Positions 10,287 to 41,742 of a stretch of DNA of 64,000 nucleotides are shown piece by piece. The position numbers were made by a program, and so were the translations under genes. The DNA comes from Eledone cirrhosa (lineage: Eukaryota): the NCBI GenBank assembly GCA_964016885.1, contig OZ024766.1:2480001-2544000 (forward strand), read 5' to 3'. The notes beneath the pieces are model-generated. The model saw only the letters and a program-made list of their open reading frames with translations. It searched no databases and had not been told where the DNA came from. Position 1 is the stretch's first letter. Each line of letters begins with the position of its first letter.

Positions 10287-10476
10287 ACGGAGTTGTGGTA
10301 AGGAACCAAATGGACCATAACGCACCAAAGTACTCAATACTTAGGGTAGTAGAGTGGGGGAAAAGGAAAAAAGTATGACCCCGGCGGCAGAGCTCAAGCC
10401 GTTTCGACGGCTATTTCAGTCCAGAAATAGCCGCCGAAACGGCTTGAGCTCTGCCGTCGGGGTCATACTTTTTCCT
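10287..10476 (-). mobile_element. Palindrome-plus-tail element, family A (copy 1), in (TA)n
   Basis: Arms 10364-10417 and 10424-10476 (loop agtcca); tail 10287-10360 is the reverse complement of the tails of the 11368 and 15452 copies; TA repeats on both sides. Confidence 0.8.
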
Positions 10477-10674
10477 ATATATATATATATATCCAGGGGC
10501 ATCGTTTGCCTTATGTGAGGGGGGACAAACCAACATTTGTTGGTCCTTAAAGGAGCAGGTTAGCATTACATATGGTGTCTTTTCCAGACCCTGTCACATA
10601 AGGAAACTTTTACACTAATCAAATTTTATAAATTCCAACGAAGTTCAGAGATATATATATATATATATATATGT

Positions 10675-10716
<42 letters not shown>

Positions 10717-10769
10717 TGATTTAAAACTGCACTATCCAAGTGTTTTTTAGCCTTCATATCATGTTCTCC

Positions 10770-10840
10770 TGTTTTATCTGATGAAAACACAAATATTATT
10801 GCTTGATGATGATTGTTTTTGAAATGCGCATAATAAAATA
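10770..10840 (+). ncRNA. Type I hammerhead ribozyme motif (family F)
   Basis: Stem I tgttttat/ataaaata; CUGAUGA at 10778-10784; long stem II; GAAA at 10821-10824; palindromic UGCGCA; predicted cleavage after AUA at 10832. Confidence 0.7.
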
Positions 10841-10870
10841 TATGGAACTCCTTTAACCATCTTTTGATCT

Positions 10871-10913
<43 letters not shown>

Positions 10914-10931
10914 TGTATAATATGTAATTAA

Positions 10932-10964
<33 letters not shown>

Positions 10965-11235
10965 ACTGCGTTATACACACACATATATATATATATACAC
11001 ACACACACAGGAGCCTTGTTACAGCGGTGTACCAGGACACAAGTCACCCTCCCTTTTGCAGGAACAGGGGGGGGGGGGGACAAACCATCTTTTGTTTGAC
11101 ATAAATTCTTTTGAAACTTATTTTTATATATATATATACACACATATGTGTATGTATGTATGTATGTATATGTATGTGTGTGTGTGTGTGTGTGACGAAA
11201 CTTAAGTCAATTGCATGAACTCATCCTTTATTTAC

Positions 11236-11287
11236 TGCTATATATATTTCGATGATAGCCATTGATTGGCTATGACCTCATCAGGCA
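11236..11287 (-). ncRNA. Type I hammerhead ribozyme motif
   Basis: Minus strand reads ugc CUGAUGA ggucauagcca-aucaa-uggcuaucauc GAAA uauaua UA^ gca. Stem I is short (3 bp). Confidence 0.6.
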
Positions 11288-11367
11288 CTTAGTCAGTTCT
11301 TAGATATGCCAGCTCTGTCTTTATGGTGTTGATGATATCAGAGCCTTGACACCCACACACCACACAC

Positions 11368-11555
11368 AGGAACGAGTAGGACCCCGACGGCTGAGCTCAA
11401 GCCGTTTCGACGGCTAATTCAGTCCAGAATTAGCCGTCGAAACGGCTTGAGCAGCCGTCGGGGTCCTACTCGTTCCTATTACCCACTCTACTACCCTAAG
11501 TATTGAGTACTTTGGTGCGTTATGGTCCACCTGGTTCCTTACCACATTTCCTTCG

Positions 11556-11556
<1 letters not shown>
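11368..11556 (+). mobile_element. Palindrome-plus-tail element, family A (copy 2)
   Basis: Arms 11368-11420 and 11427-11477, then tail attacccactctactaccctaagtattgagtac...ccttcgt ending in (TA)n. Confidence 0.8.
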
Positions 11557-11630
<74 letters not shown>

Positions 11631-12109
11631 AATCCAATTTAAGAATATATATATTTAAGAATCCAATTCAATAAATAGACCAGGATTTTTTTTCATTCTG
11701 ATGATTGAAAGCAACATTTTTTGCTTTTAAGAAACCACTGGTAAATGGAATAATTGCCTTATGTTGTTTATTACATAACTATATATATATATATATATAT
11801 ATATACTAAATGTGAAGACTAAAATCCAAAGAGGGTTCGATAAGGATAAATATATAAGAACTGTAGAGCAAATATTTATTAAAATAACTTCAATAAATAC
11901 TCACACACACAATGAATTATTATAAGACATCCAAACTTCGGGAACTCCGTCACCTCGGGCCACTAAACTCTATTCCTTGCTTTAATTAGTTATACTCCCC
12001 CGCCTACCTAAATTACTTTCTCAATTAATTATTTTAAATGAAATTTGGCTCCAATTTATTTTCACGTGTAGAATTAAACCATGTGGATAATTTCCCATTT
12101 CAAAACTGA

Positions 12110-13430: not shown

Positions 13431-13599
13431 ATATGTGTATATATGTGTGTGTGTGTGTGTGTGTGTATGTGTGTGTATATGTATATATATATATATATTT
13501 TTTTTTCTTCATAACATTTTGTATACATACATTGTTAATGGTGTAGACTTAAATTATTGGAGAAATTCTCCATGTTTGATTTCCAAACACATTCGGTTA

Positions 13600-13784: not shown

Positions 13785-13827
<43 letters not shown>

Positions 13828-15060: not shown

Positions 15061-15128
<68 letters not shown>

Positions 15129-15307
15129 CCCCCACTCTCAACCGCCGAGGTTGACTTTGCCTTTCATCCTTACAGGGTCGATAAAATAAAGTACCAGTAA
15201 TGCACTGGGTAATTGCTGGCCTTGTGCCTAAAGTAGAAACAATTATATATGTATATATGTATATATATTATTCAAAATATTAATAAATGAAGACATTCAC
15301 ATCAATG

Positions 15308-15370
15308 TTTTATTATATATATTTCGGAGGTACTGTGCTGTTTTTTTCAGTACGTCCTCGTCAGATAAAA
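15308..15370 (-). ncRNA. Type I hammerhead ribozyme motif
   Basis: Minus strand reads uuuuau CUGACGA ggacguacug-aaaaaaacagca-caguaccucc GAAA uauaua UA^ auaaaa. Perfect 6-bp stem I and strong stem II. Confidence 0.75.
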
Positions 15371-15451
15371 TACATGAATTGATGTATGACATACCTCAAC
15401 TGTATTCATGGTTCCATTTCGGTCTGCCAAGATATCTGTATATATATATAT

Positions 15452-15655
15452 AGGAGAAAGTATGACCCCGACGGCAGAGCTCAAGCCGTTTTGATGGCTA
15501 TTTCTGGATTAAGTCTTTAGTTCAGAAATAGCCGTCGAAACGGTTTGAGCTCTGCTGTTGGGGTCATACTTTCTCCTATTACCCACTCTACTACCCTAAG
15601 TATTGAGTACTCTGGTGCGTTATGGTCCACCTGGTTCCTTACCACAACTCCTTCG

Positions 15656-15656
<1 letters not shown>
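15452..15656 (+). mobile_element. Palindrome-plus-tail element, family A (copy 3)
   Basis: Arms aggagaaagtatgacccc.../...ggggtcatactttctcct, same tail as the other copies, flanked by (TA)n. Confidence 0.8.
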
Positions 15657-15687
<31 letters not shown>

Positions 15688-15689
<2 letters not shown>

Positions 15690-15900
15690 TTTTAATATAG
15701 ATGAGATTCTACAGGAGTAGAACTGTTTCATTCTTCAGAAATCATCAGTAAAGGCTTTACCTCACATAATTCCTGATGATTTCTGAAGAATGAAACGGTT
15801 CTAGTCCTGTAGAATCTCATCTATATTAAAACCTTTATACTCTGCTATGTATTGAGTACCTTACTTACTGTGGTTACCTCCGATTCAACCCGGAATAACG
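15688..15900 (+). mobile_element. Palindrome-plus-tail element, family D, with a truncated hammerhead-like core
   Basis: ~60-bp arms ggttttaatatagatgagattctacagg...atcatcag and ctgatgat...catctatattaaaacc; tail tatactctgctatgtattgagtacc; right arm has CTGATGA...GAAAC...GTC but no 5' strand of stem I. Confidence 0.75.
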
Positions 15901-16652: not shown

Positions 16653-17593
16653 TAACATTTACATTACTCTATATACACTATTGTATTGTCACAGTAAAGG
16701 CTTTACCTCACATAATACCTCACATAACATTTACATTACTCTATATATACTATTGTATTGTCACAGTAAAGGCTTTACCTCACATAATACCTCACATAAC
16801 ATTTACATTACTCTATATATACTATTGTATTGTCACAGTAAAGGCTTTACCTCACATAATACCTCACATAACATTTACATTACTCTATATATACTATTGT
16901 ATTGTCACAGTAAAGGCTTTACCTCACATAACATTTCACATAACATTTACATTACTCTATATATACTATTATATTGTCACAGTAAAGGCTTTACCTCACA
17001 TAATACCTCACATAACATTTACATTACTCTATATATACTATTGTATTGTCACAGTAAAGGCTTTACCTCACATAACATTTCACATAACATTTACATTACT
17101 CTATATAAACTATTGTATTGTCACAGTAAAGGCTTTACCTCACATAATATCTCACATAACATTTACATTACTCTATATATACTATTGTATTGTCACAGTA
17201 AAAGCTTTACCTCGCATAATATCTCACATAACATTTACATTACTCTATATATACTATTGTATTGTCACAGTAAAGGCTTTACCTCACATAACATTTCACA
17301 TAACATTTACATTACTCTATATATACTATTGTATTGTCACAGTAAAGGCTTTACCTCACATAATATCTCACATAACATTTACATTACTCTATATATACTA
17401 TTGTATTGTCACAGTAAAAGCTTTACCTCGCATAATATCTCACATAACATTTACATTACTCTATATATACTATTGTATTGTCACAGTAAAGGCTTTACCT
17501 CACATAACATTTCACATAACATTTACATTACTCTATATATACTATTATATTGTCACAGTAAAGGCTTTACCTCACATAACATTTCACATAACA
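16653..17593. repeat. 72-bp minisatellite, ~13 copies
   Basis: Unit acatttacattactctatatatactattgtattgtcacagtaaaggctttacctcacataatacctcacata; second array at 32278-32860. Confidence 0.95.
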
Positions 17594-17850
17594 TCGAATC
17601 GATGAGATTTTTATATTATTTATTTTGAGAACAATACCTTAACATCAGCATGAGTAGCAAGTTGCAGCCGATTTTGAATAGAAAGAGGTGAGAGAATTCT
17701 GGACAGATATGGTCAGTTCAAATGCTAAATGTTTAAAATAAAAAGATACGTTAAATATTTTCTTGTTGGGATTGTTTCAGGTTTGTTGAGGACCTACACA
17801 AGATTTTCCACCGTTAGAGAAATATAAGGTGCTGCGTGGTGGCCTACAGT

Positions 17851-18796: not shown

Positions 18797-19810
18797 CCCA
18801 TCTCTCCCTCTCCACCTTCACTCTCATCTCCTCCCCCCTTTTTTTCATCCTTTCCACCCCACCCTCCCTAAATAAAATATTTTTTCCTCGCACATATCCT
18901 CCCTTCGTTAATTTTCAAAATTTTTAATTTATACAGTATCTTCCAACGGTTTTCAACCCCTCTATGTAAAAAATATATCTCCTCTCAGTTATAAAAACTA
19001 TCTCTTTCTCTCTATCACCCATCTCTCCCTCTCATCTCCTTCCCTTTTCATCCTTCTCCCCCCCCCCTCTCTAAATAAAATATTTTTCCCAATATCACAC
19101 ATCAATCTAAAACCACTTTTCATATGTTGATTTAAAACTGCACTATCAACAAGTGTTTTTTAGCCTTCATATCATGTTCTCCTGTTTTATCTGATGAAAA
19201 CACAAATATTATTGCTTGATGATGTTTGTTTTTGAAATGCGCATAATAAAATATATGGAACTCCTTTAACCATCTTTTGATCTTATATTATGCATACTCC
19301 AGTCCCACAAACTGTAGAGTGCTTCTTATCCGATATCTGCATTGCTTTATTGTACTACAATAAAACTCACCTCCTACATTATATATATATATATATATAT
19401 ATACGATATTAAACAAATGGAAACTACATTTATAAAACCATATTTATTTCATTATATATATTTCAGGGATATCATATTAAAAATATGGTATGCCCTCTTC
19501 AGACAAAATACAATTAAGGTATGTCAAATTTATTTATAAAACTGTTTATATATTGTATTTTGTCTGAAGAGGGCATACCATATTTTTAATATATCCCTGA
19601 AATATATATAATGAAATAAATATGGTTTTATAAATGTAGTTTCCATTTGTTTAATATCGTAAAATACTCCAAAACCTGTTGAGTGCTTTTATATCAGTTA
19701 TAAAATATTTACTCGTTGTAACCCAACAATTTTAAATAAAACTTTTGCATATGTATATATATATATATATACTCCATTATATATATATATACTCCATTTT
19801 TTTATATATA

Positions 19811-19848
<38 letters not shown>

Positions 19849-22800
19849 CAAATGGAAACTATATTTATAAAACCATATTTATTTCATTATACATATTTCA
19901 AGGACACCATGTTAAACTATGGTGTGCTTTCATCAGACAAAATACAATATAGATCAGTTTTATAAATAAATATTGACATACCCTTAAAAAATGCAACCAT
20001 TACCGGGATCTTCCAACAGTAATGGTTGCTGGCCTTGTGCCTTAATCAAATACCATTATTTGGTCAATAAAGCAAAGTACCAGTAATGCGCTGGAATAAT
20101 TGCTGGCCTTGTGCCTTAATCACACCGTTATTTGGTCAATAAAACAAAGTACCAGTAATGCGCTGGGGGTTGATTTGACTTTCCGCTCCCCCAAATTGCT
20201 GGCCTTAATGAGACGCCATTGTTATTTCAGTGCCAAAGAGAAAGAAGAGCCTGCTTGTGATAGTAAACCCAGTAAGTGGCAGAAAGAAGGGGCTGAAGGT
20301 GTTCAACAGTATACTGCCATTGCTCCAGCTGGCCAATATTAAGACTGAATTGTTTGGTAAGTTGAGCTATGGTTTGTCAATGTACTGGTTGTGGCGGTGG
20401 TTGTGGTTGTTGTGGTGTGGTGTTGTGGTGTGGTGCTGGTGTGGTGGTGGTGGCAGTGCTGGTGGTGGTGTTGTAGTGGTGGTGCTGCGGTGGTGGTGGT
20501 GCTGTTGTGGTGGTGGGCAGTGGTGGTGCTGTTGTGGTGTTGTTGTTGTTGTGGTGATGGGTGGTGGTGTTGTTGTTGTGGTGGTGGTGTACATTATAAT
20601 CATGAAACCAACACTAGGAAGGTTGTCATGTCCTTGACACAACTGAAGGGTCCTACTAACCCTTTATTTATTACCATCATTTCCCTTGCTAGCAGGGGTT
20701 GGCCAGACCATCACACACCCAAGTCAGTTGGAAGTAGTGACCAGGTCGCACTGAAGATGGGCCATATGGTTGCATCTTCCTAACAGATGTGCCCAGATTT
20801 TACAGAGGGTACCTGGTGTATTTTATTGTAGCACCAACACTAGGGAGGCTGTCATGTCTTTGACGCAGCTGAAGGGTCCTCCTGGCCCTTTATTCAGCAG
20901 GTTTTCTACATTGATTACTAGTTATTATTGGCTCTCTTATTTCCAGTAACCAAGAAGAAAGGAGATGCTACAGAACTGTTCAAAGACAAAGACCTCTCGC
21001 CTTTTGACGGGTAAGTTGGCCTCTTTCTTTCTTTCTCTCTCTCTTCCTTTCTCTCTCTCTCTCTTCCTTTCTCTCTCTCTCTCTTCCTTTCTCTCTCTTC
21101 CTTTCTCTCCCTCTCTTCCTTTCTGTTTCTCTTTCTTTCTCTCCCTCTCTTCCTTTCTCTCTTTCTCTTTCTTTCTCTTCCTTTCTCTCTTTCTCTTTCT
21201 TTCTCTTCCTTTCTCTTTCTTTCTTTCTCTTCCTTTCTCTCTTTCTCTTTCTTTCTCTCCCTCTCTTCCTTTCTCTCTCTCCCTCTCTTCCTTTCTCTCT
21301 CTCTTTCTCTCCCTCTCTCTCTCACTCAATACCCAGCCAGTTTCATGAGTGCTGCAAAGTCTGAGACCTATTCTCGGAGGAAGTGTCTGCGCAGTCCAGT
21401 CCATCCCACATGCTGTACACCCACTCAGAAGCAGGTGTAGAGAAGTTCATGAATGATGGAGGGCAGGAGGCTGAATTAAGTGCAAGAACTGCAGGAGTTG
21501 GTGCAGCAATGCAGCAGCTTCAGTATCTGGTAATCGGGAGGGAGGTGTAAAAAGCCAAACTCGCTATCTTCAATTTGGTATTCGTGCCAACCCTTACCTA
21601 TGATCGTGAATCTTGGGTAATGACAGAAGGAATATGATCGTGAACACATGTAGCCAAAATGGGTCCCTCTAAAGGGTCTTTGGGGTAACATTACTTGATA
21701 GAATGCACAGCTCGGAGATCAGAGAGTTACTCCAGGTAGAGCTGCTACTTCTCTGAATTGAGATATCACAGCTCGGGTGTTATGGATATGTGGTTAGCAT
21801 GTCTCAGGAAAGAATCACTGGGGAATCATTCCAGGTAGAGCCACTATTTCTCTAAATTGAGATATCACAGCTCGGGTGTTATGGACATGTGGTTAGAATG
21901 TCTCAGGAATGCTAATGTTGCCCTAAAAAAAACGTCGGACACGAGACAAAACATTCAGATTTACCTCAGATGACGGGCGCTATCTCAATTGCATCCTACA
22001 ACAGGGAATTTTTTGGGAGAAAGGGAGAGTTGATTAAATCAACTCCAGTGTGTTACTGGTACTCTGTTTTTCATCCTTACAGGGTCGATAAAATAAAGCT
22101 AACCTCAGCAGGATTTGAACTTGGAATGTAAAGTCTTAATAACAAAATATTGGGGGTTTCTGTGGACTTGGTCGGCTCTATGCACAACGATGGGATCACT
22201 GGCTTAGGGTGATCCCAGCCTCGTTGAGCAAGAGGAAAATTTAGACACGAGGCTAACAATTTTGGGGAAGGGAAAATCGATTAAATCAAACTCAGTGTAT
22301 TACTGGTACTTTATATTATTGAGCCTGTGAGGATGAAAGGCAAGGCTACCCTTGGCAGGATTTCAATTCAGAATGGAAAGGGTCGTAATTAAAATAATCT
22401 AAACTATAATTGTTTCTACTTTAGGCACAAGGCCAGCAATTACCCCAGTGCATTACTGGTACTTTATTTTATCGACCCAGTAAGGATGAAAGGCAAAGTT
22501 AACCTCGGCGGGATTTGAACTCGGATCGTAAAGGGACGTAACTCTGCTGGAAAGCATGGCGTCCGACCTAACGATACTGCCAATCCATCGCCGTTTAAAA
22601 TAATCTAAACTATAATGATGATGATGATGATGATGATGATTTGTTTGTTCTATTTGCAGTGTTGTACTTGTTGGTGGTGATGGGACGTATTACGAAGTGT
22701 TAAATGGACTGCTCACCCAAGCTCAGAATGCTGCCAAGTATGACTTAAACCTACCTGCCACTGAATGGAAGCCGAGTCCTCTGCCTGTTGGTATAATACC

Positions 22801-25800: not shown

Positions 25801-28800
25801 GTTTGGTTACAGAGGGAGGGACTAGGTATCGTCTACTGTCATGTTTGGTTACAGAGGGAGGGACTAGGTATGGTCTATCATGTTTGGTTACAGAGGGAGG
25901 GACTAGGTATGGTCTACTGTCATGTTTGGTTACAGAGGGAGGGACTAGGTGTGGTCTATCATGTTTGGTTACAGAGGGAGGGACTAGGTATGGTCTACTG
26001 TCATGTTTGGTTACAGAGGGAGGGACTAGGTATCGTCTACTGTCATGTTTGGTTACAGAGGGAGGGACTAGGTATGGTCTATCATGTTTGGTTACAGAGG
26101 GAGGGACTAGGTATGGTCTACTGTCATGTTTGGTTACAGAGGGAGGGACTAGGTGTGGTCTATCATGTTTGGTTACAGAGGGAGGGACTAGGTATGGTCT
26201 ACTGTCATGTTTGGTTACAGAGGGAGGGACTAGGTATGGTCTACTATCATGTTTGGTTACAGAGGGAGGGACTAGGTGTGGTCTATCATGTTTGGTTACA
26301 GAGGGAGGGACTAGGTATGGTCTACTGTCATGTTTGGTTACAGAGGGAGGGACTAGGTATGGTCTACTGTCATGTTTGGTTACAGAGGGAGGGACTAGGT
26401 ATGGTCTATCATGTTTGGTTACAGAGGGAGGGACTAGGTATGGTCTACTGTCATGTTTGGTTACAGAGGGAGGGACTAGGTATGGTCTACTGTCATGTTT
26501 GGTTACAGAGGGAGGGACTAGGTATGGTCTACTGTCATGTTTGGTTACAGAGGGAGGGACTAGGTATGGTCTACTGTCATGTTTGGTTACAGAGGGAGGG
26601 ACTAGGTATGGTCTACTATCATGTTTGGTTACAGAGGGAGGGACTAGGTGTGGTCTACTGTCATGTTTGGTTACAGAGGGAGGGACTAGGTATGGTCTAC
26701 TGTCATGTTTGGTTACAGAGGGAGGGACTAGGTATGGTCTACTGTCATGTTTGGTTACAGAGGGAGGGACTAGGTATGGTCTACTATCATGTTTGGTTAC
26801 AGAGGGAGGGACTAGGTGTGGTCTACTGTCATGTTTGGTTACAGAGGGAGGGACTAGGTATGGTCTACTGTCATGTTTGGTTACAGAGGGAGGGACTAGG
26901 TATGGTCTACTGTCATGTTTGGTTACAGAGGGAGGGACTAGGTATGGTCTACTGTCATGTTTGGTTACAGAGGGAGGGACTAGGTATGGTCTATCATGTT
27001 TGGTTACAGAGGGAGGGACTAGGTATGGTCTACTGTCATGTTTGGTTACAGAGGGAGGGACTAGGTATGGTCTATCATGTTTGGTTACAGAGGGAGGGAC
27101 TAGGTATGGTCTACTGTCATGTTTGGTTACAGAGGGAGGGACTAGGTGTGGTCTATCATGTTTGGTTACAGAGGGAGGGACTAGGTATGGTCTACTGTCA
27201 TGTTTGGTTACAGAGGGAGGGACTAGGTGTGGTCTACTGTCATGTTTGGTTACAGAGGGAGGGACTAGGTATGGTCTACTATCGTGTTTGGTTACAGAGG
27301 GAGGGACTAGGTATGGTCTATCATGTTTGGTTACAGAGGGAGGGACTAGGTATGGTCTACTGTCATGTTTGGTTACAGAGGGAGGGACTAGGTGTGGTCT
27401 ACTGTCATGTTTGGTTACAGAGGGAGGGACTAGGTATGGTCTACTATCGTGTTTGGTTACAGAGGGAGGGACTAGGTGTGGTCTACTGTCATGTTTGGTT
27501 ACAGAGGGAGGGACTAGGTATGGTCTACTGTCATGTTTGGTTACAGAGGGAGGGACTAGGTGTGGTCTACTGTCATGTTTGGTTACAGAGGGAGGGACTA
27601 GGTATGGTCTACTATCATGTTTGGTTACAGAGGGAGGGACTAGGTGTGGTCTACTGTCATGTTTGGTTACAGAGGGAGGGACTAGGTATGGTCTACTGTC
27701 ATGTTTGGTTACAGAGGGAGGGACTAGGTATGGTCTACTGTCATGTTTGGTTACAGAGGGAGGGACTAGGTATGGTCTACTGTCATGTTTGGTTACAGAG
27801 GGAGGGACTAGGTATGGTCTACTATCATGTTTGGTTACAGAGGGAGGGACTAGGTATGGTCTACTATCGTGTTTGGTTACAGAGGGAGGGACTAGGTATG
27901 GTCTACTATCATGTTTGGTTACAGAGGGAGGGACTAGGTATGGTCTACTGTCATGTTTGGTTACAGAGGGAGGGACTAGGTATGGTCTATCATGTTTGGT
28001 TACAGAGGGAGGGACTAGGTATGGTCTACTGTCATGTTTGGTTACAGAGGGAGGGACTAGGTGTGGTCTATCATGTTTGGTTATGCAAGCGATAAATGGC
28101 TGGCTACTAATATGCAAAGCCGGGCATTTATCGCTCGTATTTATTGCTGATATGCAAATCTGGCTGGTCAGTCAGTCTGCTGATATGCAAATCAGGCTGA
28201 TCAGTCAGTCTGCTGATATGCAAATCTGGCTGGTCAGTCAGTCTGCTAATATGCAAATCAGGCTGATCAGTCAGTCTGCTGATATGCAAATCTGGCTGCT
28301 CAGTCAGTCTGCTAATATGCAAATCTGGCTGGTCAGTCAGTCTGCTGATATGCAAATCTGGCTGGTCAGTCAGTCTGCTGATATGCAAATCTGGCTGGTC
28401 AGTCAGTCTGCTGATATGCAAATCTGGCTGGTCAGTCAGTCTGCTGATATGCAAATCTGGCTGATCAGTCAGTCTGCTAATATGCAAATCAGGCTGATCA
28501 GTCACTGTGTATTTCAGAAAATATCATATATTTTCACTAGCTCTGACAGTTTGGCAGGTGAACAGTGAGCTGTACTGATGAAGGGCAATACCCAGAAACA
28601 TTAGTGTCTGCAGTTCTGTTTACATGCCAACACAAGAACAAGAATGAAGGGTTCATTCTACTGACATGGCTATAAAATTGAGGCTTGTTTGCATAATTGC
28701 AAACGAATCGAATGTTATTAATATTCGAAAAAACTCTGATTACATTTATTGTATTCAGCTATGTAGAGTGAAATTTTCTTATCTCTCGCTCTCGCTCTCG

Positions 28801-29140
28801 CTCTCTCTCATTTTATGTCCGCTTTTCCCTGCTTGCAAGGGTGGGACAGGAACTGATTCTGGCTTGATTTCTACAGCTGGATGCCCTTCCTAACACCAAC
28901 CTCATTTACAGTGAGTGCTGGGTGCTTTTTTTTTGCCGTGGCACCTCCACGACCACTTTGCAGAGGAATGATAGGGACCCCAGTCCCTATCATCTCATTT
29001 CTACAGCTGAGTAAACTGGAGCAATGTGAAATAAAGTGCCTTGCTCAAGGAAACAACACAACACCCGGTCTGAGAATTGAATTCACAACCTTTCGATTGC
29101 AAGGCCAATGCTCTAACCACTAAGCCATGTGCCTCCATAT

Positions 29141-32100: not shown

Positions 32101-35100
32101 GTAGTAGTAGTAGTAGAAGTAAATGTCCAGTTTTTCCAATGGTAAGGTTTGGCACAAATGCTATATTGAAGATAGCTAGTTTGTCTATTACACCTACCAC
32201 CCTTCTTCTGACAATTGAATGTTGAAGCTGGAACATTACTGCACCAGCTCCAGCAATTTTTCCACTTAACCCTTCACCATTTACATTACTCTATATATAC
32301 TATTGTATTTTCACAGTAAAGGCTTTACCTCACATAATACCTCACATAACATTTACATTACTCTATATATACTATTGTATTGTCACAGTAAAGGCTTTAC
32401 CTCACATAATACCTCACATAACATTTACATTACTCTATATATACTATTGTATTGTCACAGTAAAGGCTTTACCTCACATAATACCTCACATAACATTTAC
32501 ATTACTCTATATATACTATTGTATTGTCACAGTAAAGGCTTTACCTCACATAACATTTACATTACTCTATATATACTATTGTATTGTCACAGTAAAGGCT
32601 TTACCTCATATAATATCTCGCATAACATTTACATTACTCTATATATACTATTGTATTTTCACAGTAAAGGCTTTACCTCACATAATACCCCACATAACAT
32701 TTACATTACTCTATATATACTATTGTATTTTCACAGTAAAGGCTTTACCTCACATAATATCGCACATAACATTTACATTACTCTATATATACTATTGTAT
32801 TGTCACAGTAAAGGCTTTACCTCACATAATATCTCGCATAACATTTACATTACTCTATATATATATATATATAAGTGTGTGTGTGTGTGTGTGTGATCAT
32901 TTTATTTTATATTTTTTTCCTCTGCCTTTTCCTTTTTTTTTTCTTTTATAGTGAGATTGATGCCGATCAACTGTCGACTACTGAGGTGAAAGGGGAGGTA
33001 ACTGGTGAGAACATGAGTGAAGCAGGCTTGGGAGTGGAACCTAAGTGGAGTGAGAGCACGACTGAAGATCAGGCTGGAGAAGAGGTGGCTGTTAATAAGG
33101 ATGGTGTCCAAAGTGGAGACCTCGCTATGGCCACCAGCGACGGCCGTTCACCTGTGACTCAGGACAGATCTGTTGATACACCATCTAAAGAAGCTGAGAC
33201 TGCTCAGGACAGATCTGTTGATACACCATCTAAAGAAGCTGAGACTGCTCAGGACAGATCTGTTGATACAGCGTCAAAAGAAGCTGAGACTGCTCAGGAC
33301 AGATCTGTTGATACACCGTCTAAAGAAGCTGAGACTGTTCAGGACAGATCTGTTGATACAGCGTCTAAAGAAGCTGAGACTGCTCAGGACAGATCTGTTG
33401 ATACAGCGTCTAAAGAAGCTGAGACTGCTCAGGACAGATCTGTTGATACAGCGTCTAAAGAAGCTGAGACTGCTCAGGATAGATCTGTTGATACAGCGTC
33501 TAAAGAAGCTGAGACTGCTCAGGACAGATCTGTTGATACAGCGTCTAAAGAAGCTGAGACTGCTCAGGACAGATCTGTTGATACAGCGTCTAAAGAAGCT
33601 GAGACTGCTCAGGACAGATCTGTTGATACAGCGTCTAAAGAAGCTGAGACTGTTCAGGACAGATCTGTTGATACAGCGTCTAAAGAAGCTGAGACTGCTC
33701 AGGACAGATCTGTTGATACACCGTCTAAAGAAGCTGAGACTGTTCAGGACAGATCATTTGATACACCGTCTAAAGAAGCTGAGACTGTTCAGGACAGATC
33801 ATTTGATACACCGTCTAAAGAAGCTGAGACTGTTCAGGACAGATCATTTGATACACCGTCTAAAGAAGCTGAGACTGTTCAGGACAGATCATTTGATACA
33901 CCGTCTAAAGAAGCTGAGACTGTTCAGGACAGATCTGTTGATACACCGTCTAAAGAAGCTGAGACTGTTCAGGACAGATCTGTTGATACACCGTCTAAAG
34001 AAGCTGAGACTGTTCAGGACAGATCTGTTGATACACCGTCTAAAGAAGCTGAGACTGTTCAGGACAGATCTGTTGATACACCGTCTAAAGAAGCTGAGAC
34101 TGCGCAGGACAGATCTGTTGATACAGCGTCTAAAGAAGCTGAGACTGCTCAGGACAGATCTGTTGATACACCGTCTGGTACTTCTGTTGAGACTTCTAAA
34201 GAAGCTGAGGCTGCTGCTACTGACATCTGTCAAGGGAATGTAACTAAAGGTTTGTATGTCAACTTAGTTTATTTTTCTCCTACTGATGTTGGACTGTAAG
34301 ATGGTCGGTAGTGAAGGGAACAGAAGGGCGGTGGCGGAGGAGTGAACAGATGGAGGGGGGGGGAGAAAATACTTGGTCTTGAAAATTTTGTTCTTACAAT
34401 TACTGTTAAGTACCAGTCACACACTGGGGTCAATTTAATCGACTCCCCCCCCCCCCAAAAAAAAAAAATTGCTGGCCTTGTGCCTATATAAGAAAGCATT
34501 GTTACTGTTAAGGGGGAGTTTTCCCACTGTTCATCTCTCGTTTTATTGACATTCTGCTAGACCGGGGACAGTCGATAACGGGGGCTGATTTAGGCACAAG
34601 GCCAGTAATTTGTGGGGGGAGGGCGAAAATCGATTGAATCGATCCCAGTGCATTACTGGTACTATATTTTATCGAAGGAAACAGTTCTAGTCCTGTAGAA
34701 GCCATTTCTGTATTATATATATATATATATATATATTTGTTTGTGGAGGCATGTGGCTGAGTGGTAAGATAAATATGCATGTGTAGTGTTTGTACCAGAG
34801 TGTTCAAGTCGCTGGCTGGACTGAAAAGTCACACTCGTTCAGCGCATCGGTAGGGGTTCTCCTACATGGATATAAAGTAGTGGCCGTACTCGAAAACGAG
34901 TTGGCAGCCACCATATATATAGATGTATGTATATATATTTATATATATACGAATATATATATTTATATACATATAGTAATAATAAATATGAAGACTAAAA
35001 TCCAAAGAGGTCTCGATAAAGATAAATATATATCGAATACATATATATATATATATGTATGCATGTATATATGTATGTATGTACGTACATATGTATATAT

Positions 35101-35269: not shown

Positions 35270-36893
35270 TGTATGTATGTATGTATGTATGTATGTATGT
35301 ATGTATATATATATATATATATAAATAAAATAAACACATTGTAAATTATCCCTACTACGGCAGTTCGATATTGAACCTCTCACCTCGCTACGAAACAATA
35401 AATACCCATTACTCCTACCAACAAAGCTACCAGAAAACTTGCTGTAAATTTTATATATTTAAAGTATTAAAAACCTTAAATTAATTTATTTAATTATAAA
35501 TACGGAAAGTGTAGAGACAGAAGATAAATAAAACTTCAAAATAATCACAATATCCGACATTGTTTTGAGAATAATAGTGTAAAAAATTGACACCGGTTTA
35601 GGGGTCCACGTAACCTTTGCCCTCTCGCTCCCATGGTGACTTGATGTTCAGATTAAAGAGAGGTGTGCAATAAATTAGTTAATTATTTCATATTTATTCA
35701 TTAATACCAAACAAGGAACAAGATGGGGGGAAAGAAATTTAAAAAAATTACGGTCGTTAAAAAAAAAAAAATTCAGCCATTACCCTCCCATGATGCAACA
35801 GTAGAGGTAAATACTTTGACGATTTAGCGACATCAGTTCCCCAGATTTCTCTCAGCCGAAATCTCAAGAACGATAACTCTGTCTTTACTTAATCGCAAAA
35901 ATGGGTGCAAAAAAGTTTCAGCTGACTTTTTTATGTTTGATGATTGAATCACGTTAAGCGTGAAAGCAGCGATTCTTAACTTAAATTTTAACCTGTTCTT
36001 ATAATATATATGTAATAATATATATATATATATAGATATATATAATTATTTAACATAAATTACTTTACATATATATATATAAATACAGAGAGAGTGTGGC
36101 ACTCCGTCGGTTACGACGAAGGGAATTCGTGTTTTTATTACTAATGATTGAATATGTATGTATGTATGTATGTATATATGTATGTATGTGTATATATATG
36201 TATATATATACATACATATCCGGGAGAGATGACCCCTTAGCCTTTGTCAAGGCTGAATTCTAGGAGAAGGAAAACTCTGATATAACATCTGCAACCCTTA
36301 TGGTATCCAATGATGTTGACTTGTTCTTTTTGGTAAATATCATCTTGGTTAAGAGAGTGGGACTGGCTTTGTGCAGTGCCTTTGCTCACTATAAAAGCTT
36401 CACGGCACAGGCATTGCTTTATATCTGGAGATCTCTCTGCACTTGTCGTCACATGGTACCAGCACTATATGTCAATAATTGTCACAAGTGTAGTGTTTGT
36501 ACCAGAGTTTTCATGTCGCTGGCTGGACTAAAAAGTCACACTCGTTCAGCGCATCGGAAGGGGTTCTTCTACATGGATATACAGTTGTGGCCGTACTCGA
36601 AAACGAGTTGGCAGCCACCATATATATATATAGATGTGTGTATATATATATTTATATATATACGAATATATATATTTATATATATATATAGTAATAATAA
36701 ATGTGAAGACTAAAATCCAAAGAGGTCTCGATAACGATAAATAAATATCGAATATATATATATCTGTGTATGAGGGTATATATCTGTGTATGTATGTATG
36801 TATGTATGTATATATATGTATGTATGTATATATGTATGTATATATATATATATATATGTACGTACGTATGTATATATATGTATGTACATATAT

Positions 36894-36946
<53 letters not shown>

Positions 36947-39900
36947 TCTATATATATATAAAATAAACACATTGTAACTTATTCCTACTACGGCAGTTCG
37001 ATATTGAACCTCTCACCTCGTTACGAAACAATAAATACCCATTACTCCTACCAACGAAGCAACCAGCGAATTTGCTGTAAATTTTATATATTTAAAGTAT
37101 TAAAAACCTTAAATTTATTTATTTAATTATAAATACGGAAAGTGTAGAGACAGAAGATAAATAAAACTTCAAAATAATCATAATATCCGACATCGTTTTG
37201 AGAATAAGTGTAAAATTGACACCGGTTTAGGGGTTCCACGTAACCCTTGCCCTCTAAATATTTAATCATTAGTAATAAAAACACGAATTCCCTTCGTCGC
37301 AACCGACAGAGTGCCACGCTCTCTCTGTATTTATATATATATATATATGTAAAGTAATTTGTTAAATAATTATATATATATATATATTATTATATATAAT
37401 ATTATAAGAATAGGTTAAAATTTAAGTTAAGAATCGCTGCTTTCACGCTTAACGTGATTCAATCATCAAACATAAAAAAGTCAGCTGAAACTTTTTTGCA
37501 CCCATTTTTGCGATTAAGTAAAGACAGAGTTATCGTTCTTGAGATTCGGCTGAGAGAAATTTGGGGAACTGATGTCGCTAAATCGTCAAAGTATTTACCT
37601 CTACTGTTGCATCATGGGAGGGTAATGGCTGACATTTGTTTTTTTAACGACGGCGATTTTTTAAATTTCTGTCCCGCCATCTTGTTCCTTGTTTGTTATT
37701 AATGAATAAATATCAAATAATTAATTAATTTATTGCACACCTCTCTTTAATCTGAACATCAAGTTACCATTGGAACGAGAGGGCAAGGGTTACGTGGACC
37801 CCTAAACCGGTGTCAATTTTACACTATTATTCTCAAAACAATGTCAGATATATTCGTATATATATAAATATATATACATACATCTATATATATGGTGGCT
37901 GCCAACTCGTTTTCGAGTACGGCCACTACTTTATATCCATGTAGGAGAACCCCTAGCGATGCGCTGAACGAGTGTGACTTTTCAGTCCAGCCAGCGACTT
38001 GAAAACAGAATCAGTAGAGCGTCGGAGAACGTTTAGCTGCATAGAGTTGCGGCCCTTACGTTATGAGTTCAAATCCCGCCGAGGTTCACTTTTCCTTTCA
38101 TCCTTCCGGGTGTCGATAAAATAAAGTACCAGTAATACACTGGGATAATTGCTGGCCTTGTGCCCCCAAAAGTAGAAACAATTATTACAGGGTTGATAAA
38201 ATAAAGTACCAGTAATACACTGGGATAATTGCTGGCCTTGTGCCCCCAAAAGTAGAAACAATTATTACAGGGTTGATAAAATAAAGTACCAGTAATACAC
38301 TGGGGTAATTGCTGGCCTTGTGCCAAAAGTGGAAACATTTATTACAGGGTTGATAAAATAAAGTACCAGTAATACACTGGGATAATTGCTGGCCTTGTGC
38401 CCCCAAAAGTAGAAACAATTATTACAGGGTTGATAAAATAAAGTACCAGTAATACACTGGGATAATTGCTGGCCTTGTGCCCCCAAAAGTAGAAACAATT
38501 ATTACAGGGTTGATAAAATAAAGTACCAGTAATACACTGGGGTAATTGCTGGCCTTGTAGAAATAATTGTTGTTGTTGTTGTTGTTGTTAGGCTGGAAGT
38601 ATTTGACGGGATCCTACATGTCGGTTGGTACATTCCTCCATTACGACTTATCTCAGCCAATGATGGGAGCTGTTGATGTCTTCTTGGTTAACAACTTCTC
38701 TGAAATGAAGGACATGTTTAAAAAGGTTCTGTGTTTATCTAAGGTAAAATATCTCCTCTTTCTCCTTCCACCCCACACCTGTTTCCCCATTCACCGTAAC
38801 ATTGCCCTCTACATTCTTGGACAGCTAAACTTTCAGATAACCGCACTACGCACCACACACCACACACCACACACCACACCACGCACCACACACACACACA
38901 CACACACTTTAGCTCGACATCTGACCTTCCATCGGGCACCACAACAACAAAAGACAGCCAATCCACACTGTAAAGTGGTTGTGCTGGTGTCATGACAAAA
39001 GGCACCCATTCCGCACTGTAAGGTGGTTGTGCTGGTGTCATGACAAAAAAGCAGCCAGTCCACACTGTAAGGTGGTTGTGCTGGTGTCATGACAAAAGGC
39101 ACCCAATCCACCCTGTAAGGTGGTTGTGCTGGTGTCATGACAAAAAAGCAGCCAGTCCACACTGTAAGGTGGTTGTGCTGGTGTCATGACAAAAGGCACC
39201 CATTCCGCACTGTAAGGTGGTTGTGCTGGTGTCATGACAAAAGGCACCCATTCCACACTGTAAGGTGGTTGTGCTGGTGTCATGACAAAAGGCACCCATT
39301 CCACACTGTAAGGTGGTTGTGCTGGTGTCATGACAAAAGGCACCCATTCCGCACTGTAAGGTGGTTGTGCTGGTGTCACGACAAAAGCCACCCATTCCAC
39401 ACTGTGAAGTGGTTGTGCTGGTGACACAAAAAAGGCACCCAGTCCCCCCTGTAAAGTGGTTGTGCTGGTGTCATGACAAAAGGCACCCAGTCCACCCTGT
39501 AAAGTGTTTGGTGAGACAAAGGCTATCCATACATGGATTAATCTACATACATGAATGTAAATATAAATACATGCTACATTATCATTGTTAAGCATCTGTT
39601 GTTGTTGTTACTGATTTTTTTTTTTTTTTTTTTTTTTTTCTCCCCCCCTGCATCTTTAAAGACTTTCAAGGGTACAATGTTTACAACGAGACGCCTGCTG
39701 TTGGAAATTCCCGAAGTTGACCCAAACAATGAGAAAGAGATGGCCCTCAACTGCGATGGCGAATACACTATTTTGGACCATCCGATCTTCATACAAATAT
39801 GGTGAGCTGTTTAATAGTGTTGTTGTTGTTGTTGTTTGAATGTAGTCTAATACATGGGGGAGGGGTGCTGCAAATGGAGTAAGAGAAACTAATGTATTAG

Positions 39901-41742
39901 TCCTGGGACAGAGAATCAAACTCTATACCCACACAATATCATTTCTCTCACTACTTATGGTATTGGTGTACACTGCTTTCCTTTTGATTGGTATCTTAAT
40001 GATACTAGTTTAATTAAAACACCGATGCTGGTGACACAACAAAAGGCACCCAGCTCACCCTGTAAAGTGGTTGTGCTGGTGACACAACAAAAGGCACCCA
40101 GCTCACCCTGTAAAGTGGTTGTGCTGGTGACACAACAAAAGGCACCCAGCTCACCCTGTAAAGTGGTTGTGCTGGTGACACAACAAAAGGCACCCAGCTC
40201 ACCCTGTAAAGTGGTTGTGCGCTGGTGACACAACAAAAGGCACCCAGCTCACCCTGTAAAGTGGTTGTGCTGGTGACACCCTGTATATGTGTGTCTGTGT
40301 GTGTACATCATGGTGTATATGTGGAGGGTCGAAAATAAAGTACCAGTAATACAATGGGTCAGTTAAATCGACTTTCCCTTCCCCTTCAATTTACTGGTGT
40401 TGGTGGATTGGCAGTATCGGTAGAGGGTCAGACACCATGCTTTCCAGCATGGAGTTACGTCCCTTTAGATCTGAGTTCAAATCCTGCCGAGGTTAACTTT
40501 GCCTTTCATCCTTACTGGGTCGATAAAATAAAGTACCAGTAATGCACTGGGGTAATTGCTGGCCCTGTGCCTAAAGTAGAAACAATTATTCTTTGTGTGT
40601 GTGTGTGATATTAAATAAATGGAAACTATATTTATAAAACCATATTTATTCTATTATATATATTTCAAGGGTACCAAAACTTTGGTACGCTCTCATCAGA
40701 TAAAATACAAAGTTTTGTTTTATAAATACTGACATATCCAGGAATGATGAGAGCGTACCAAAATTTTGGTGCCCTTGGAATATATATAATAGAATAAATA
40801 TGGTTTTATAAATATAGTTTCCATTTATTTAAAATCATTGTATATTATACTCCAGAAAACCTGTTGGGTGCTTCGAATCAGTTATAAACATATATATTTG
40901 TTGAATTACCAACAAATTAAATATCTCTCTATATATATATTAAATAAATAAATAAAATAAAATAATAATAAAAAAAAAAAAAAAAAATAAATATACACGG
41001 GTGTGTATGATTGTGTATAGAAGATTATATTAATAAGAGGAATTCCAACTTTGTCTGATTTACTCGTTTTATTTACAATCCTTAAAATTTATAATGGTAT
41101 TATAATGAAATAGTATGATAGAATATTAAATGTTAAGTGTTAATTGAACAAGTACTTTCATACTTTCGCAGTTTTCAGGTTCATAATGTGTGGTGACAGT
41201 CAAATATATATAAATAATATAAAATCTAAAGATGGTTAAAAGAGTTCCATGTATTTTATTATGTGCATTTCAAAAACAAATATCATCATGCGATGATATT
41301 TGTTTTTGAAATGCGCATAATAAAATACCTGGAACTCTTTTAACCATCTTTTGATTTTATATTATTTATACTCCAGTCCTATAAACTGTTGAGTGCTACT
41401 TATCCGATATTTGCATTGCTTTATTGTGCTACAATAAAACTCACCTCCTACATTATATATATAATGTGCATTGCCCTATGTACTGTACATGCACTTTTTT
41501 GATGAGTTGTGGTGCACCTGGGCACTGTACACAATATTTCATTATTATTATATCATGACTCATACACTGTTCATTTTCCTGACATTGGTACATTATTCTA
41601 TGTACTATACATGCACCTTTGATGAGTTGTAGTGCACCTGAGCACTGTACACAATAATTTCATTATTATTATATATATATAATCTTTTCATTCTGTAATC
41701 CATAGCTTCCAAGTTGGATTAATTTCTCTGTTTTGTTGTTGA
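17851..41742 (+). CDS. Ceramide kinase-like lipid kinase (DAGK/sphingosine kinase family), 12 coding exons, 2673 nt, ~890 aa
   Basis: Manual GT-AG model with consistent phases: 17851-17983, 18552-18740, 20231-20356, 20947-21010, 22660-22805, 23662-23733, 29266-29415, 31714-31879, 32952-34249, 38592-38743, 39662-39801, 41706-41742. Motifs [34 protein letters not shown]...LGVLRY and NCDGE occur in the order known for CERK/SphK. Confidence 0.85.
18552..18740 (+). CDS. CERK-like coding exon 2 ([10 protein letters not shown]...INGLVHS), putative PH-like region
   Basis: tatttcag acceptor, t|gtaagt donor, open frame in phase 1-1. Confidence 0.7.
19183..19253 (+). ncRNA. Type I hammerhead ribozyme motif (family F), sense strand of the kinase intron
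   Basis: uguuuuau CUGAUGA aaacacaaauauuauu-gcuu-gaugauguuuguuuuu GAAA ugcgca UA^ auaaaaua; predicted cleavage after 19245; tail tactccagtcccacaaactgtagagtgc...ctcctacat then (TA)n. Confidence 0.75.
19445..19510 (-). ncRNA. Type I hammerhead ribozyme motif (family G, left arm)
   Basis: Minus strand reads uauuuugu CUGAAGA gggcauaccauauu-uuu-aauaugauaucccu GAAA uauaua UA^ augaaaua. Confidence 0.65.
19556..19618 (+). ncRNA. Type I hammerhead ribozyme motif (family G, right arm)
   Basis: CUGAAGA at 19564-19570, GAAA at 19599-19602, UAUAUA, UA^ at 19610; stem I uauuuugu/augaaaua; stem II has a small deletion. Confidence 0.6.
19880..19944 (-). ncRNA. Type I hammerhead ribozyme motif (family G)
   Basis: Minus strand reads uauuuugu CUGAUGA aagcacaccau-aguuuaac-augguguccuu GAAA uaugua UA^ augaaaua. 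Confidence 0.7.
20231..20356 (+). CDS. CERK-like coding exon 3 ([21 protein letters not shown]...TELF)
   Basis: DAGK-catalytic C1 motif NPxSG; tttcag acceptor, g|gtaagt donor. Confidence 0.9.
20947..21010 (+). CDS. CERK-like coding exon 4 ([22 protein letters not shown])
   Basis: ttccag acceptor, gg|gtaagt donor, 64 nt. Confidence 0.85.
21360..21910 (+). mobile_element. Degraded RTE-type LINE fragment (post-RT region)
   Basis: Disrupted translation [34 protein letters not shown]...[11 protein letters not shown] resembles an RTE ORF2 C-terminal region. Confidence 0.55.
22411..22594 (-). mobile_element. tRNA-derived SINE with ~22-bp target-site duplication
   Basis: Minus strand has box B gagttcaaatccc, then gactttgcctttcatcc...gtcgataaaataaagtaccag-type core; TSD ttaaaataatctaaactataat at 22389-22410 and 22595-22616. 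Related copies near 30-110, 14905-15245, 22020-22390, 34400-34672, 38005 and 40400-40590. Confidence 0.85.
22660..22805 (+). CDS. CERK-like coding exon 5 ([19 protein letters not shown]...PVGIIPS)
   Basis: ATP-binding GGDG motif; tttgcag acceptor, g|gtaaat donor; not in the ORF track. Confidence 0.92.
23020..23547 (-). mobile_element. RTE-type LINE 3' end with internal 49-bp tandem amplification and an inverted 5' piece
   Basis: Minus strand [39 protein letters not shown]; plus-strand piece [27 protein letters not shown] (pre-RT-like) at ~23460-23547. Confidence 0.65.
23662..23733 (+). CDS. CERK-like coding exon 6 ([24 protein letters not shown])
   Basis: Poly-T tract plus ccag acceptor; g|gtatgg donor. 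Confidence 0.88.
23731..28082. repeat. 42-bp (39-bp variant) minisatellite, ~104 copies, intronic
   Basis: Unit taggtatggtctactgtcatgtttggttacagagggagggac; source of three >1400-aa pseudo-ORFs. Confidence 0.97.
28144..28504. repeat. 33-bp minisatellite, ~11 copies, each with ATGCAAAT
   Basis: Unit gctgatatgcaaatctggctggtcagtcagtct. Confidence 0.93.
28567..28616 (+). ncRNA. Type I hammerhead ribozyme with GUC cleavage triplet, sense strand of the kinase intron
   Basis: gagcugua CUGAUGA a-ggg-caaua-ccc-a GAAA ca-uuag-ug UC^ ugcaguuc; 8-bp stem I (two G-U); predicted cleavage after 28608; A-A at the base of stem II. Confidence 0.75.
28850..29136 (-). mobile_element. tRNA-derived SINE (second family)
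   Basis: Minus strand ggaggcacatggcttagtggttagagc (box A)...tgtgaattcaattc...tccttgagcaaggcactttatttcac; plus-strand copy at ~42170-42400. Confidence 0.75.
29266..29415 (+). CDS. CERK-like coding exon 7 (GKQQEMTTY...[27 protein letters not shown])
   Basis: C4-type motif GYGF.SD...LG..RY; tacag acceptor, g|gtaggt donor. Confidence 0.9.
29447..30137. repeat. 79-bp minisatellite, ~9 copies
   Basis: Unit ttctatgaaacaaaaatacccattttaaaggcttcatatttagccctttataaaccaaccctgccaaaagtagctctgg. Confidence 0.92.
30308..31007. repeat. 39-bp minisatellite, ~18 copies
   Basis: Unit agggtttgtagcaaaggtttctgttacgctacatgggct. Confidence 0.95.
31714..31879 (+). CDS. CERK-like coding exon 8 ([22 protein letters not shown]...KPDDN)
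   Basis: Pyrimidine tract plus cacag acceptor, ag|gtaaga donor; phase 1 to 2 fits both neighbours. Confidence 0.8.
32278..32860. repeat. 72-bp minisatellite, second array
   Basis: Same unit as 16653-17593. Confidence 0.93.
32952..34249 (+). CDS. CERK-like coding exon 9, 1298 nt, acidic insertion with a 45-bp coding repeat (QDRSVDT[A/P]SKEAET[A/V] x ~22)
   Basis: Strong pyrimidine tract plus atag acceptor in phase 2; aag|gtttgt donor in phase 1; unique coding-like flanks; exons 8 and 10 are out of phase without it. Confidence 0.75.
34782..38003. repeat. Complex direct and inverted duplication of LINE-end and unique segments
   Basis: Direct: ~34782-35625 versus ~36489-37255. Inverted: ~35550-36150 versus ~37260-37852, and ~34803-34955 versus ~37852-38003. 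Confidence 0.85.
38005..38560 (+). mobile_element. SINE followed by ~5 tandem 80-bp copies of its 3' tail
   Basis: gagttcaaatcccgccgagg..., then repeats of gggttgataaaataaagtaccagtaatacactgggataattgctggccttgtgcccccaaaagtagaaacaattattaca. Confidence 0.85.
38592..38743 (+). CDS. CERK-like coding exon 10 ([12 protein letters not shown]...KVLCLSK)
   Basis: W..+.G.+ motif of SphK/CERK after the insertion loop; ttag acceptor, aag|gtaaaa donor. Confidence 0.8.
38940..39505. repeat. 46-47-bp minisatellite related to the 48-bp array
   Basis: Unit cactgtaaggtggttgtgctggtgtcatgacaaaaggcacccattcc[ag]; related array at 40026-40280. Confidence 0.9.
39662..39801 (+). CDS. CERK-like coding exon 11 (...[20 protein letters not shown])
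   Basis: C5 motif NCDGE; acceptor after a poly-T tract (alternative in-frame start 39671); tg|gtgagc donor. Confidence 0.88.
40607..40925 (+). mobile_element. Palindrome-plus-tail element, family G
   Basis: Arms ~40607-40697 and ~40746-40836; tail tactccagaaaacctgttgggtgc... Confidence 0.8.
40647..40707 (-). ncRNA. Type I hammerhead ribozyme motif (family G)
   Basis: Minus strand reads uauuuuau CUGAUGA gagcguaccaaa-gu-uuugguacccuu GAAA uauaua UA^ auagaaua. Confidence 0.75.
41209..41453 (+). mobile_element. Palindrome-plus-tail element, family F (both arms truncated inside hammerhead stem II)
   Basis: Arms 41209-41287 and 41292-41370; tail matches 19296-19380. Confidence 0.8.
41706..41742 (+). 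CDS. CERK-like last coding exon ([12 protein letters not shown])
   Basis: catag acceptor in phase 2; resembles the CERK C-terminal strand; TGA at 41740-41742; AATAAA at 41959. Confidence 0.65.

Follow-up and report, generated by a model that had tools for sequence, protein, structure and literature searches.

The DNA described here, called the window throughout, is a stretch of 64,000 nucleotides from Eledone cirrhosa (contig OZ024766.1, positions 2,480,001 to 2,544,000, forward strand); its content is eukaryotic, and microsatellites make up 7.8% of it. A sphingosine-kinase-like gene on the plus strand has exons from about 18545 to 39799, one of which has its nearest named proteins in Octopus vulgaris and Argonauta hians, and its introns are rich in minisatellites. 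The window also holds seven short palindromes, each with a tail on one arm, which an earlier note on this DNA had assigned to families A (three copies), D, G (two copies) and F. We conclude that these are almost certainly end-pieces of Penelope-like elements (PLEs), and we describe a bulged hairpin in their tails. An intron of the kinase-like gene hosts G1 and the single-arm copies F2 and G3; A, D, G2 and F1 lie outside the exons found.

Inverted insertions that end at microsatellites

All seven palindromes were present where the earlier note had placed them, and they account for seven of the ten short-range inverted repeats returned by an unbiased scan of the microsatellite-masked window. The other three were a chance pairing of the neighbours G1 and G3, an eighth head-to-head pair that we call H (42450-42680), and an inverted repeat at 3073-3241 with 47-nt arms and a 77-nt loop, which has neither a hammerhead core nor a tail (the labels H, J, K and M, and the copy numbers, were coined in this analysis). 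A1 (10289-10476, minus strand) consists of a palindrome at 10364-10476 and a 75-nt tail at 10289-10363. The remaining six are on the plus strand: A2 (11368-11556; palindrome 11368-11477, tail 79 nt), A3 (15453-15656; palindrome 15453-15576, tail 80 nt), D (15688-15899; palindrome 15688-15833, tail 66 nt), G1 (19404-19749; palindrome 19404-19659, tail 90 nt), G2 (40608-40927; palindrome 40608-40835, tail 92 nt) and F1 (41209-41452; palindrome 41209-41370, tail 82 nt). The tails are thus on one arm only, as had been claimed, but their lengths run from 66 to 92 nt rather than 70 to 90 nt. Counting H, exactly one tail is found in seven of eight hammerhead palindromes (p 0.035 if ends are independent).

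Single arms also occur. F2 (19127-19379, plus strand) carries a tail, and tail-less arms ending at (TA)n runs are F3 (10715-10876, plus), K (15272-15440, minus; a relative of G and F), M (11690-11779, plus) and D2 (34674-34713, plus), a short D-like fragment holding a hammerhead 3' half; the 5' ends of F2, F3 and K are approximate. G3 (19845-19987, minus) is also tail-less and supplies the native upstream sequence of family G. J (11196-11300, minus; ends approximate) is a single-arm copy ending at (CA)n, with a hammerhead core at 11247-11284 that failed our strict descriptor. F3 and F2 start at one and the same 5' position, which precedes the hammerhead core by about 65 nt and could be either a preferred stop site or the start of a short non-autonomous unit.

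All 21 element ends that we placed by hand and eye (those of H and of two isolated hammerheads at 28575 and 6659 being outside the set) lie within 3 nt of a TA, TG or CA run, against a background of 11%, which bears out the claim that the elements end at microsatellites. As both flanks of the insertions are microsatellite, any target duplication would be hidden. We also asked whether the (TA)n runs have a telomerase-like origin and rejected this: nothing supports it, and the runs lie on both sides. G1 sits inside a (TA)n run directly after F2, and there are two clusters of insertions that share microsatellite spacers, F2/G1/G3 (19120-19987) and K/A3/D (15262-15900), which suggests that individual (TA)n runs were targeted more than once.

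Inside one insertion the arms are 91-100% identical (six insertions measured; the D arms have three mismatches in 64 nt). In five of these six insertions the arms are 96-100% alike, against 82-92% to other copies, and for this reason both arms would seem to come from one source. In G1 and D the tailed arm exceeds the other in length, and in G2 the tail-less arm is longer by 46 nt. The family G loop proved to be upstream element sequence, as first described, in sense orientation in G1 (37 nt) and antisense in G2 (46 nt). A1 and A2 share a 6-nt centre, oriented oppositely in the two.

Hammerhead motifs in the arms

The diagnostic feature of the arms, absent from the earlier note, is a type I hammerhead-ribozyme motif or its 3' half. 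The CTGANGA..GAAA core occurs 22 times in the window, against 3.4 expected, and a descriptor of the type I hammerhead (stem I, core, stem II, GAAA, stem III, UH, stem I') has 11 matches, against a mean of 0.02 and a maximum of 1 in 200 local shuffles. Seven of the 11 belong to families D, F and G; the four new ones are at 11698, 15314, 28575 and 6659. Full motifs are present in D (15773-15811), F (F2, 19191-19245; F3, 10778-10832), G (G1, 19564-19610 plus and 19453-19502 minus, one per arm; G2, 40655-40699 minus, in the tail-less arm only; G3, 19888-19936), K (15314-15364) and M (11698-11743). Each arm of family A is reduced to a hammerhead 3' half (stem III, the GTC cut triplet and the strand downstream of it), the core being removed by the junction. 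The junctions of A1-A3 and F1 lie in or at hammerhead stem-loop II; F1 is joined at the apex of loop II, so that its core is also deleted, and its single-arm relatives F2 and F3 have the motif intact. Two isolated full type I hammerheads, at 28575-28608 (plus) and 6659-6690 (minus), do not end at microsatellites and are without the tail hairpin.

In F and G stem III is a palindrome, and F, G and K can be aligned with one another around the ribozyme. The description of the families as unrelated was therefore too strong, since all have hammerhead parts; they form at most three lineages (A, D and F/G/K). Type I hammerheads with a palindromic stem III are reported in the pseudo-long terminal repeats (pLTRs) of PLEs, sometimes paired on opposite strands 100-700 bp apart, and introns are reported within pLTRs (PMC4209133). 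G and K share a splice-donor-like word, GGTATGTCA, 30-45 nt upstream of the hammerhead (approximately 19516-19522, 19972-19978 and 15394-15400).

A bulged hairpin at the inner insertion boundary

The earlier note had each tail opening with an ACTC..TGRGTRC mini-hairpin. The shared motif is real (the plain pattern has 10 matches in the window, against 1.74 expected), but it starts between -1 and 13 nt past the arm end. It is a bulged stem-loop of the general form RCTC, inner stem, loop, 2-nt bulge, GAGY-RC, and all eight tailed copies have ACTC, an inner stem of 2-4 bp, a loop of 3-7 nt, the stem partner, the bulge (TT, once TA), GRGT and RC. It lies at 10330-10355 (minus) in A1, 11485-11510 in A2, 15585-15610 in A3, 15839-15859 in D, 19666-19686 in G1, 40849-40871 in G2, 41370-41396 in F1 and 19296-19322 (with the TA bulge) in F2. 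The inner stems are TACT/AGTA in A, TGC/GTA in D and CAG(T)/(A)CTG in F and G, so that between F/G and A the stem switches C-G/T-A and G-C/C-G with pairing kept; the stems of D and G2 contain G-T pairs. A structured pattern of the hairpin gave eight matches, all in tails, against 0.28 in shuffles, a contrast inflated by the pattern having been defined on these same tails. Plain-motif sites at 21324 and at 35876, the latter with its inverted copy at 37498, were rejected as tails, as the inner stem is absent.

The hairpin marks a boundary in all four families: the tail-less arm ends from -1 to 13 nt before it, and the tail ends 40-63 nt past it. Single arms end at either boundary, F2 at the outer and F3, G3, K, M and D2 at the inner one. 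A second, less conserved hairpin stands near the 3' end of several tails (F, 41420-41440; G2, 40897-40916; also D and A).

We then read by eye six Hydra-clade consensuses from the supplement of PMC8557442 (Hydra-1_Amil and Hydra-2_Amil whole, Hydra-1_Obim nearly whole, the other three at their ends only). The hairpin recurs in three of the six, and in a fourth with one mismatch. The three matches, Hydra-2_Amil, Hydra-2_Ajap and Hydra-1_Ajap, have inner stems of 4-5 bp, a TT or TA bulge, and AC; their outer stem is GCTC/GAGC against ACTC/GAGT in the window, a compensatory A-T to G-C change. In Hydra-2_Amil, from a coral, the hairpin lies 43 nt past the hammerhead cut with the inner stem TACAC/GTGTA; in Hydra-2_Ajap, from a sea cucumber, it lies 38 nt past the cut with TGCT/AGCA; and in the copepod element Hydra-1_Crog it lies 47 nt past the cut with F's inner stem and the one mismatch. 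Hydra-1_Ajap opens with the hairpin two bases in, and its 3' end stops before any tail, which matches the tail-less arms of the window that end at the hairpin foot. The motif was loosened after these consensuses had been viewed; in its loosened form it occurs in 52 of 300,000 random 100-mers. As a control, eight 8-mers from the 3' side of the hairpin were located in the same supplement, an incomplete count because of line breaks and of variants outside the eight: the 33 places found were three Hydra hairpins, one Naiad hairpin and 29 without a hairpin by eye.

We hold it probable that the hairpin is a conserved functional cis-element. Neither it nor twin priming for PLEs is described in the literature searched (with subscription papers, Repbase reports and figures outside that search), and the main text of PMC8557442, as available, is silent on it (no occurrence of 'stem-loop'); the conserved bulged hairpin at the inner insertion boundary thus appears to be undescribed, and is the new part of this analysis.

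Probable assignment to Penelope-like elements

The published architecture of PLEs includes an inverted 5'-truncated copy, a 30-40 bp tail at one end, a hammerhead in the pLTR and microsatellite targets (PMC8557442, PMC3846280), so that the shared design described in the earlier note is a known signature of these elements. The window insertions show a type I hammerhead motif in the putative pLTR (in A, its 3' half only), an inverted, 5'-truncated copy adjoining at the 5' end (seven head-to-head pairs, and H) and a one-end tail in seven of the eight pairs. The inference of PLEs made in the earlier note is well supported, and more strongly than the note itself could show, by the hammerhead arms; the shared tail motif extends to Hydra elements, and the adjacency to microsatellites holds. 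A check, within the window, for frames with reverse transcriptase (RT) and GIY-YIG domains found none, and because of this we infer the clade and the mechanism, as well as PLE membership, from non-coding features. The copies, at 40-350 bp, are too short to hold such a frame. Endonuclease-bearing (EN+) PLEs are further characterised by target-site duplications that vary in length and by partial tandem copies that form pLTRs around the open reading frame.

Canonical hammerheads and (TA)n insertion are both features of the Hydra clade, and neither is exclusive to it. Nearly every Hydra family inserts into (TA)n; one of them, Hydra-1_Obim, is known from Octopus bimaculoides; the Neptune clade also has a microsatellite bias (PMC8557442). 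In common with Hydra elements, the window families have a canonical type I hammerhead near the 3' end, (TA)n targets, the hairpin and shared stem III types, that of D (ACAG/CTGT) being that of Hydra-1_Amil and that of M being that of Hydra-1_Obim. Unlike them, they have ACTC/GAGT in the outer stem and, in F and G, a palindromic stem III where the Hydra table gives 4-bp stems; by eye, no window family matches the end of Hydra-1_Obim. The Hydra clade is otherwise defined by protein features (RWK, DKT, a CxCX5C linker, no CCHH, and a C-terminal endonuclease; PMC8557442). Naiad elements lack the canonical hammerhead, and here canonical motifs are present. We consider that the elements probably belong to the Hydra clade. 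The hairpin itself may range more widely, but the one Naiad match is close to what chance would predict.

Other relatives share parts of this picture. The Poseidon element PAc of Anolis (Frangieh et al. 2024, PMC11167929) has AT-rich targets, cuts and extends both strands, and carries downstream of its hammerhead a tail with an RT start site at each boundary; unlike the window tails, this tail is 30-40 bp and inside the open reading frame, with initiation in an 'AC-rich stem loop'. Penelope of Adineta vaga and Drosophila virilis (PMC3846280, PMC4209133) has head-to-head inverted pLTRs, palindromic junctions, an optional one-end tail and a small palindromic helix III, but its pLTRs flank an open reading frame or a captured gene and are associated with 8-10 bp target duplications, whereas the window insertions join two truncated ends directly with nothing between. 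Non-LTR retrozymes (bioRxiv 10.64898/2026.07.22.740005) are likewise non-coding, derived from PLE pLTRs and equipped with a type I hammerhead. Their units are head-to-tail in tandem; window copies are single or head-to-head with ribozymes on opposite strands, and no hammerhead match in the window lies in a tandem array.

The earlier note had proposed one common PLE machinery for all the families. Each PLE family reportedly depends on pLTRs of its own (PMC3846280), and for this reason one enzyme serving all of them is unlikely; related enzymes reading a conserved hairpin would be the better interpretation.

Other features of the window

A cluster of C2H2 zinc-finger genes, with an 84-bp periodicity and 4.16-kb tandem duplications, occupies 634-6319 and 44740-64000. 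A LINE-type (long interspersed nuclear element) RT fragment matched by Pfam at 42962-43186, within 42962-43400, is separate from the palindromes; we take it to be LINE-like, of the RTE type. Two tRNA-like heads of short interspersed nuclear elements (29072-29127 and 42179-42236, Rfam) bear no relation to the palindromes.

A 72-bp minisatellite forms two separate arrays (16653-17594 and 32278-32863). In each unit, 29 nt match the centre of D at 97% identity, in the part immediately before the D hammerhead, and a further stretch by eye is like the tail hairpin's 5' portion; the satellite may have arisen from a D-family end that had lost its ribozyme. Another repeat family that ends at (TA)n and has a degenerate hammerhead-like core lies at 10211-10260, 35930-36010 and 37399-37546, with copies inside a large inverted duplication (35860-37546). 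A 20-nt stretch of family A, sought in bacterial genome contigs in case these contained contaminating host DNA, had one match, in a planctomycete contig of 60% GC (guanine plus cytosine) without flanking similarity; we judged this to be chance.

How one-tailed inverted ends could be made

How PLEs choose their RNA, and the origin of their one-tailed inverted ends, are called unresolved in print (PMC8557442, PMC11167929, PMC3846280). In vitro, both target strands are cut and extended by PAc, a predicted dimer; its reverse transcription begins at two internal sites bounding the tail, and ribozyme cleavage is dispensable for insertion (PMC11167929). On balance we favour the reading that the palindromes are short, 5'-truncated insertions of Hydra-clade PLE ends, produced by an enzyme that cuts (TA)n and copies RNA onto both strands, with one start site on either side of the tail.

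An RT/GIY-YIG protein encoded elsewhere would bind the hairpin in the RNA, and the hairpin would set the inner start site at its own 5' foot, with the outer start site 40-63 nt past it; the second hairpin near the tail end may correspond to this outer site. A dimer would nick both strands of a (TA)n or (TG)n run. One 3' end would then prime at the outer site, giving the tailed arm, and the other at the inner site, giving the tail-less arm, with 1-2 nt of TA homology assisting. Both cDNAs would stop early, in or just beyond the hammerhead, and be joined end to end, often via the self-complementary stem II; the longer cDNA would supply the loop, which could therefore have either orientation. Priming of one strand only would leave a single arm, tailed or tail-less.

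The components of this scheme differ in strength. Twin priming from two sites on opposite strands we hold to be about evenly balanced, and favour because either arm can be the longer, unlike the product of a simple fold-back of a tail-primed cDNA. That the hairpin positions RT on the RNA seems to us similarly poised. The most extended form of the proposal, offered only tentatively, is that the hairpin, conserved across molluscs, corals, echinoderms and crustaceans, is an RNA structure bound by Hydra-clade RTs to start internal copying, and sets the inner of two start sites, so that twin priming on opposite (TA)n strands yields the one-tailed inverted repeat by which Penelope insertions are known.

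Several results weigh against this interpretation. Thermodynamically the hairpin has little strength: the folding of the tails does not stand out from that of shuffled sequence (z -0.27 to -1.75), just one of six tails has the full hairpin as its minimum-energy fold, and the outer-stem pairing probability is 0.05-0.88, so that a protein would have to stabilise it. A covariance model built on F/G found the four A/D tails among eight weak matches (E 0.6-4.6), scoring no better than four unrelated sites. Among the Hydra consensuses, Hydra-1_Amil has the outer stem and bulge only, and no hairpin was recognised by eye in the nearly whole Hydra-1_Obim; a full match does occur in Naiad_Mmer, some 390 nt before the 3' end of that element, and about one chance match is expected in 584 kb, equalling this single Naiad match. 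The window tails are twice the published length. The CTGANGA core is lost at the junction in all three family A copies, and the A3 arms, 91% alike, are no closer mutually than to A1. H, with hammerhead cores at 42460-42501 (minus) and 42626-42667 (plus) around an 82-nt GC-rich loop, has arms about 88% alike and neither tail hairpin nor microsatellite flanks, and is possibly an old, clipped insertion. An Rfam scan of the window, with E up to 10, gave 124 matches, of which nearly all were microRNA models on microsatellites or palindromes and none was a hammerhead family; the minimal hammerhead forms here would fall outside the Rfam models. A Pfam scan of 128 of 170 filtered frames in the window (the 42 left out being mostly duplicated zinc-finger unit repeats or overlapping frames) returned only the LINE-type RT fragment, zinc fingers, a kinase exon and one weak PH-domain match, and a six-frame scan of the window for 12 short PLE protein motifs gave nothing credible.

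The published reading of head-to-head PLE palindromes also differs from ours, and provides the main rival: that the second arm arises by fold-back self-priming of one strand (PMC3846280), the element's own endonuclease resolving the intermediate at the hairpin, which would be a DNA and not an RNA signal. Tails have been ascribed in print to endonuclease resolution (PMC8557442), and recognition by the D. virilis endonuclease required the tail (cited within PMC11167929). Junctions in or at stem-loop II are explained as well by self-priming as by twin priming, arms of the same insertion share private variants, and the near-invariance of the outer stem in the window fits a DNA site read by sequence. 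However, a simple fold-back always makes the tailed arm the longer, and in G2 it is the shorter; the single arms F3, G3 and K end near the inner boundary without any fold-back; and the G-T pairs in the stems of D and G2 suit RNA. We consider self-priming with endonuclease resolution unlikely, though not negligible.

We regard as improbable that these are PLE ends whose tail hairpin plays no part in priming, being either a remnant of homology or a DNA motif, connected with the promoter or with splicing, where the element starts at its 5' side. The start of Hydra-1_Ajap with the hairpin, which makes it also the 5' start of a unit, its weak folding and the presence of only three lineages in the window (A, D and F/G, of which A and D may be related) are consistent with this, but pairing is kept across four phyla despite changes to both partners at one outer and several inner positions, with wholly different loops, and the position of the hairpin is tied to the inner insertion boundary in every family.

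Short non-coding palindromes flanked by TA resemble miniature inverted-repeat transposable elements (MITEs) of the Tc1/mariner type, and Helitrons end in CTRR after a subterminal hairpin. Miniature DNA transposons of either kind, or repair or assembly fold-backs at (TA)n with tails alike by chance, are highly improbable here: microsatellites would hide a target duplication, but the termini of the seven insertions show neither terminal inverted repeats nor Helitron ends (3-7 of 15 terminal bases match; tails end in CCGT, TCGT, TAAC, TGCA, TCTC and TACA), 5'-truncated single arms occur, hammerhead motifs are far above chance, and arms differing by up to 9%, with loops that hold true upstream sequence, argue against a read artefact.

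Implications

The elements themselves are ordinary PLE debris, in a group reported to make up 6.83% of the genome of Octopus vulgaris (Octopus vulgaris repeat paper), and such palindromes are easily mistaken in annotation for MITEs or microRNA precursors. The hairpin offers a marker for assigning ends without open reading frames to a clade, and at 21-27 nt it is a target for a direct test of the priming question; a count of which arm is the longer, and of the number of tails, across insertions would separate the twin-priming and fold-back models. PLEs are the closest relatives of telomerase, and if our reading is true, the hairpin would be a defined RNA structure that positions RT in telomerase's sister group.

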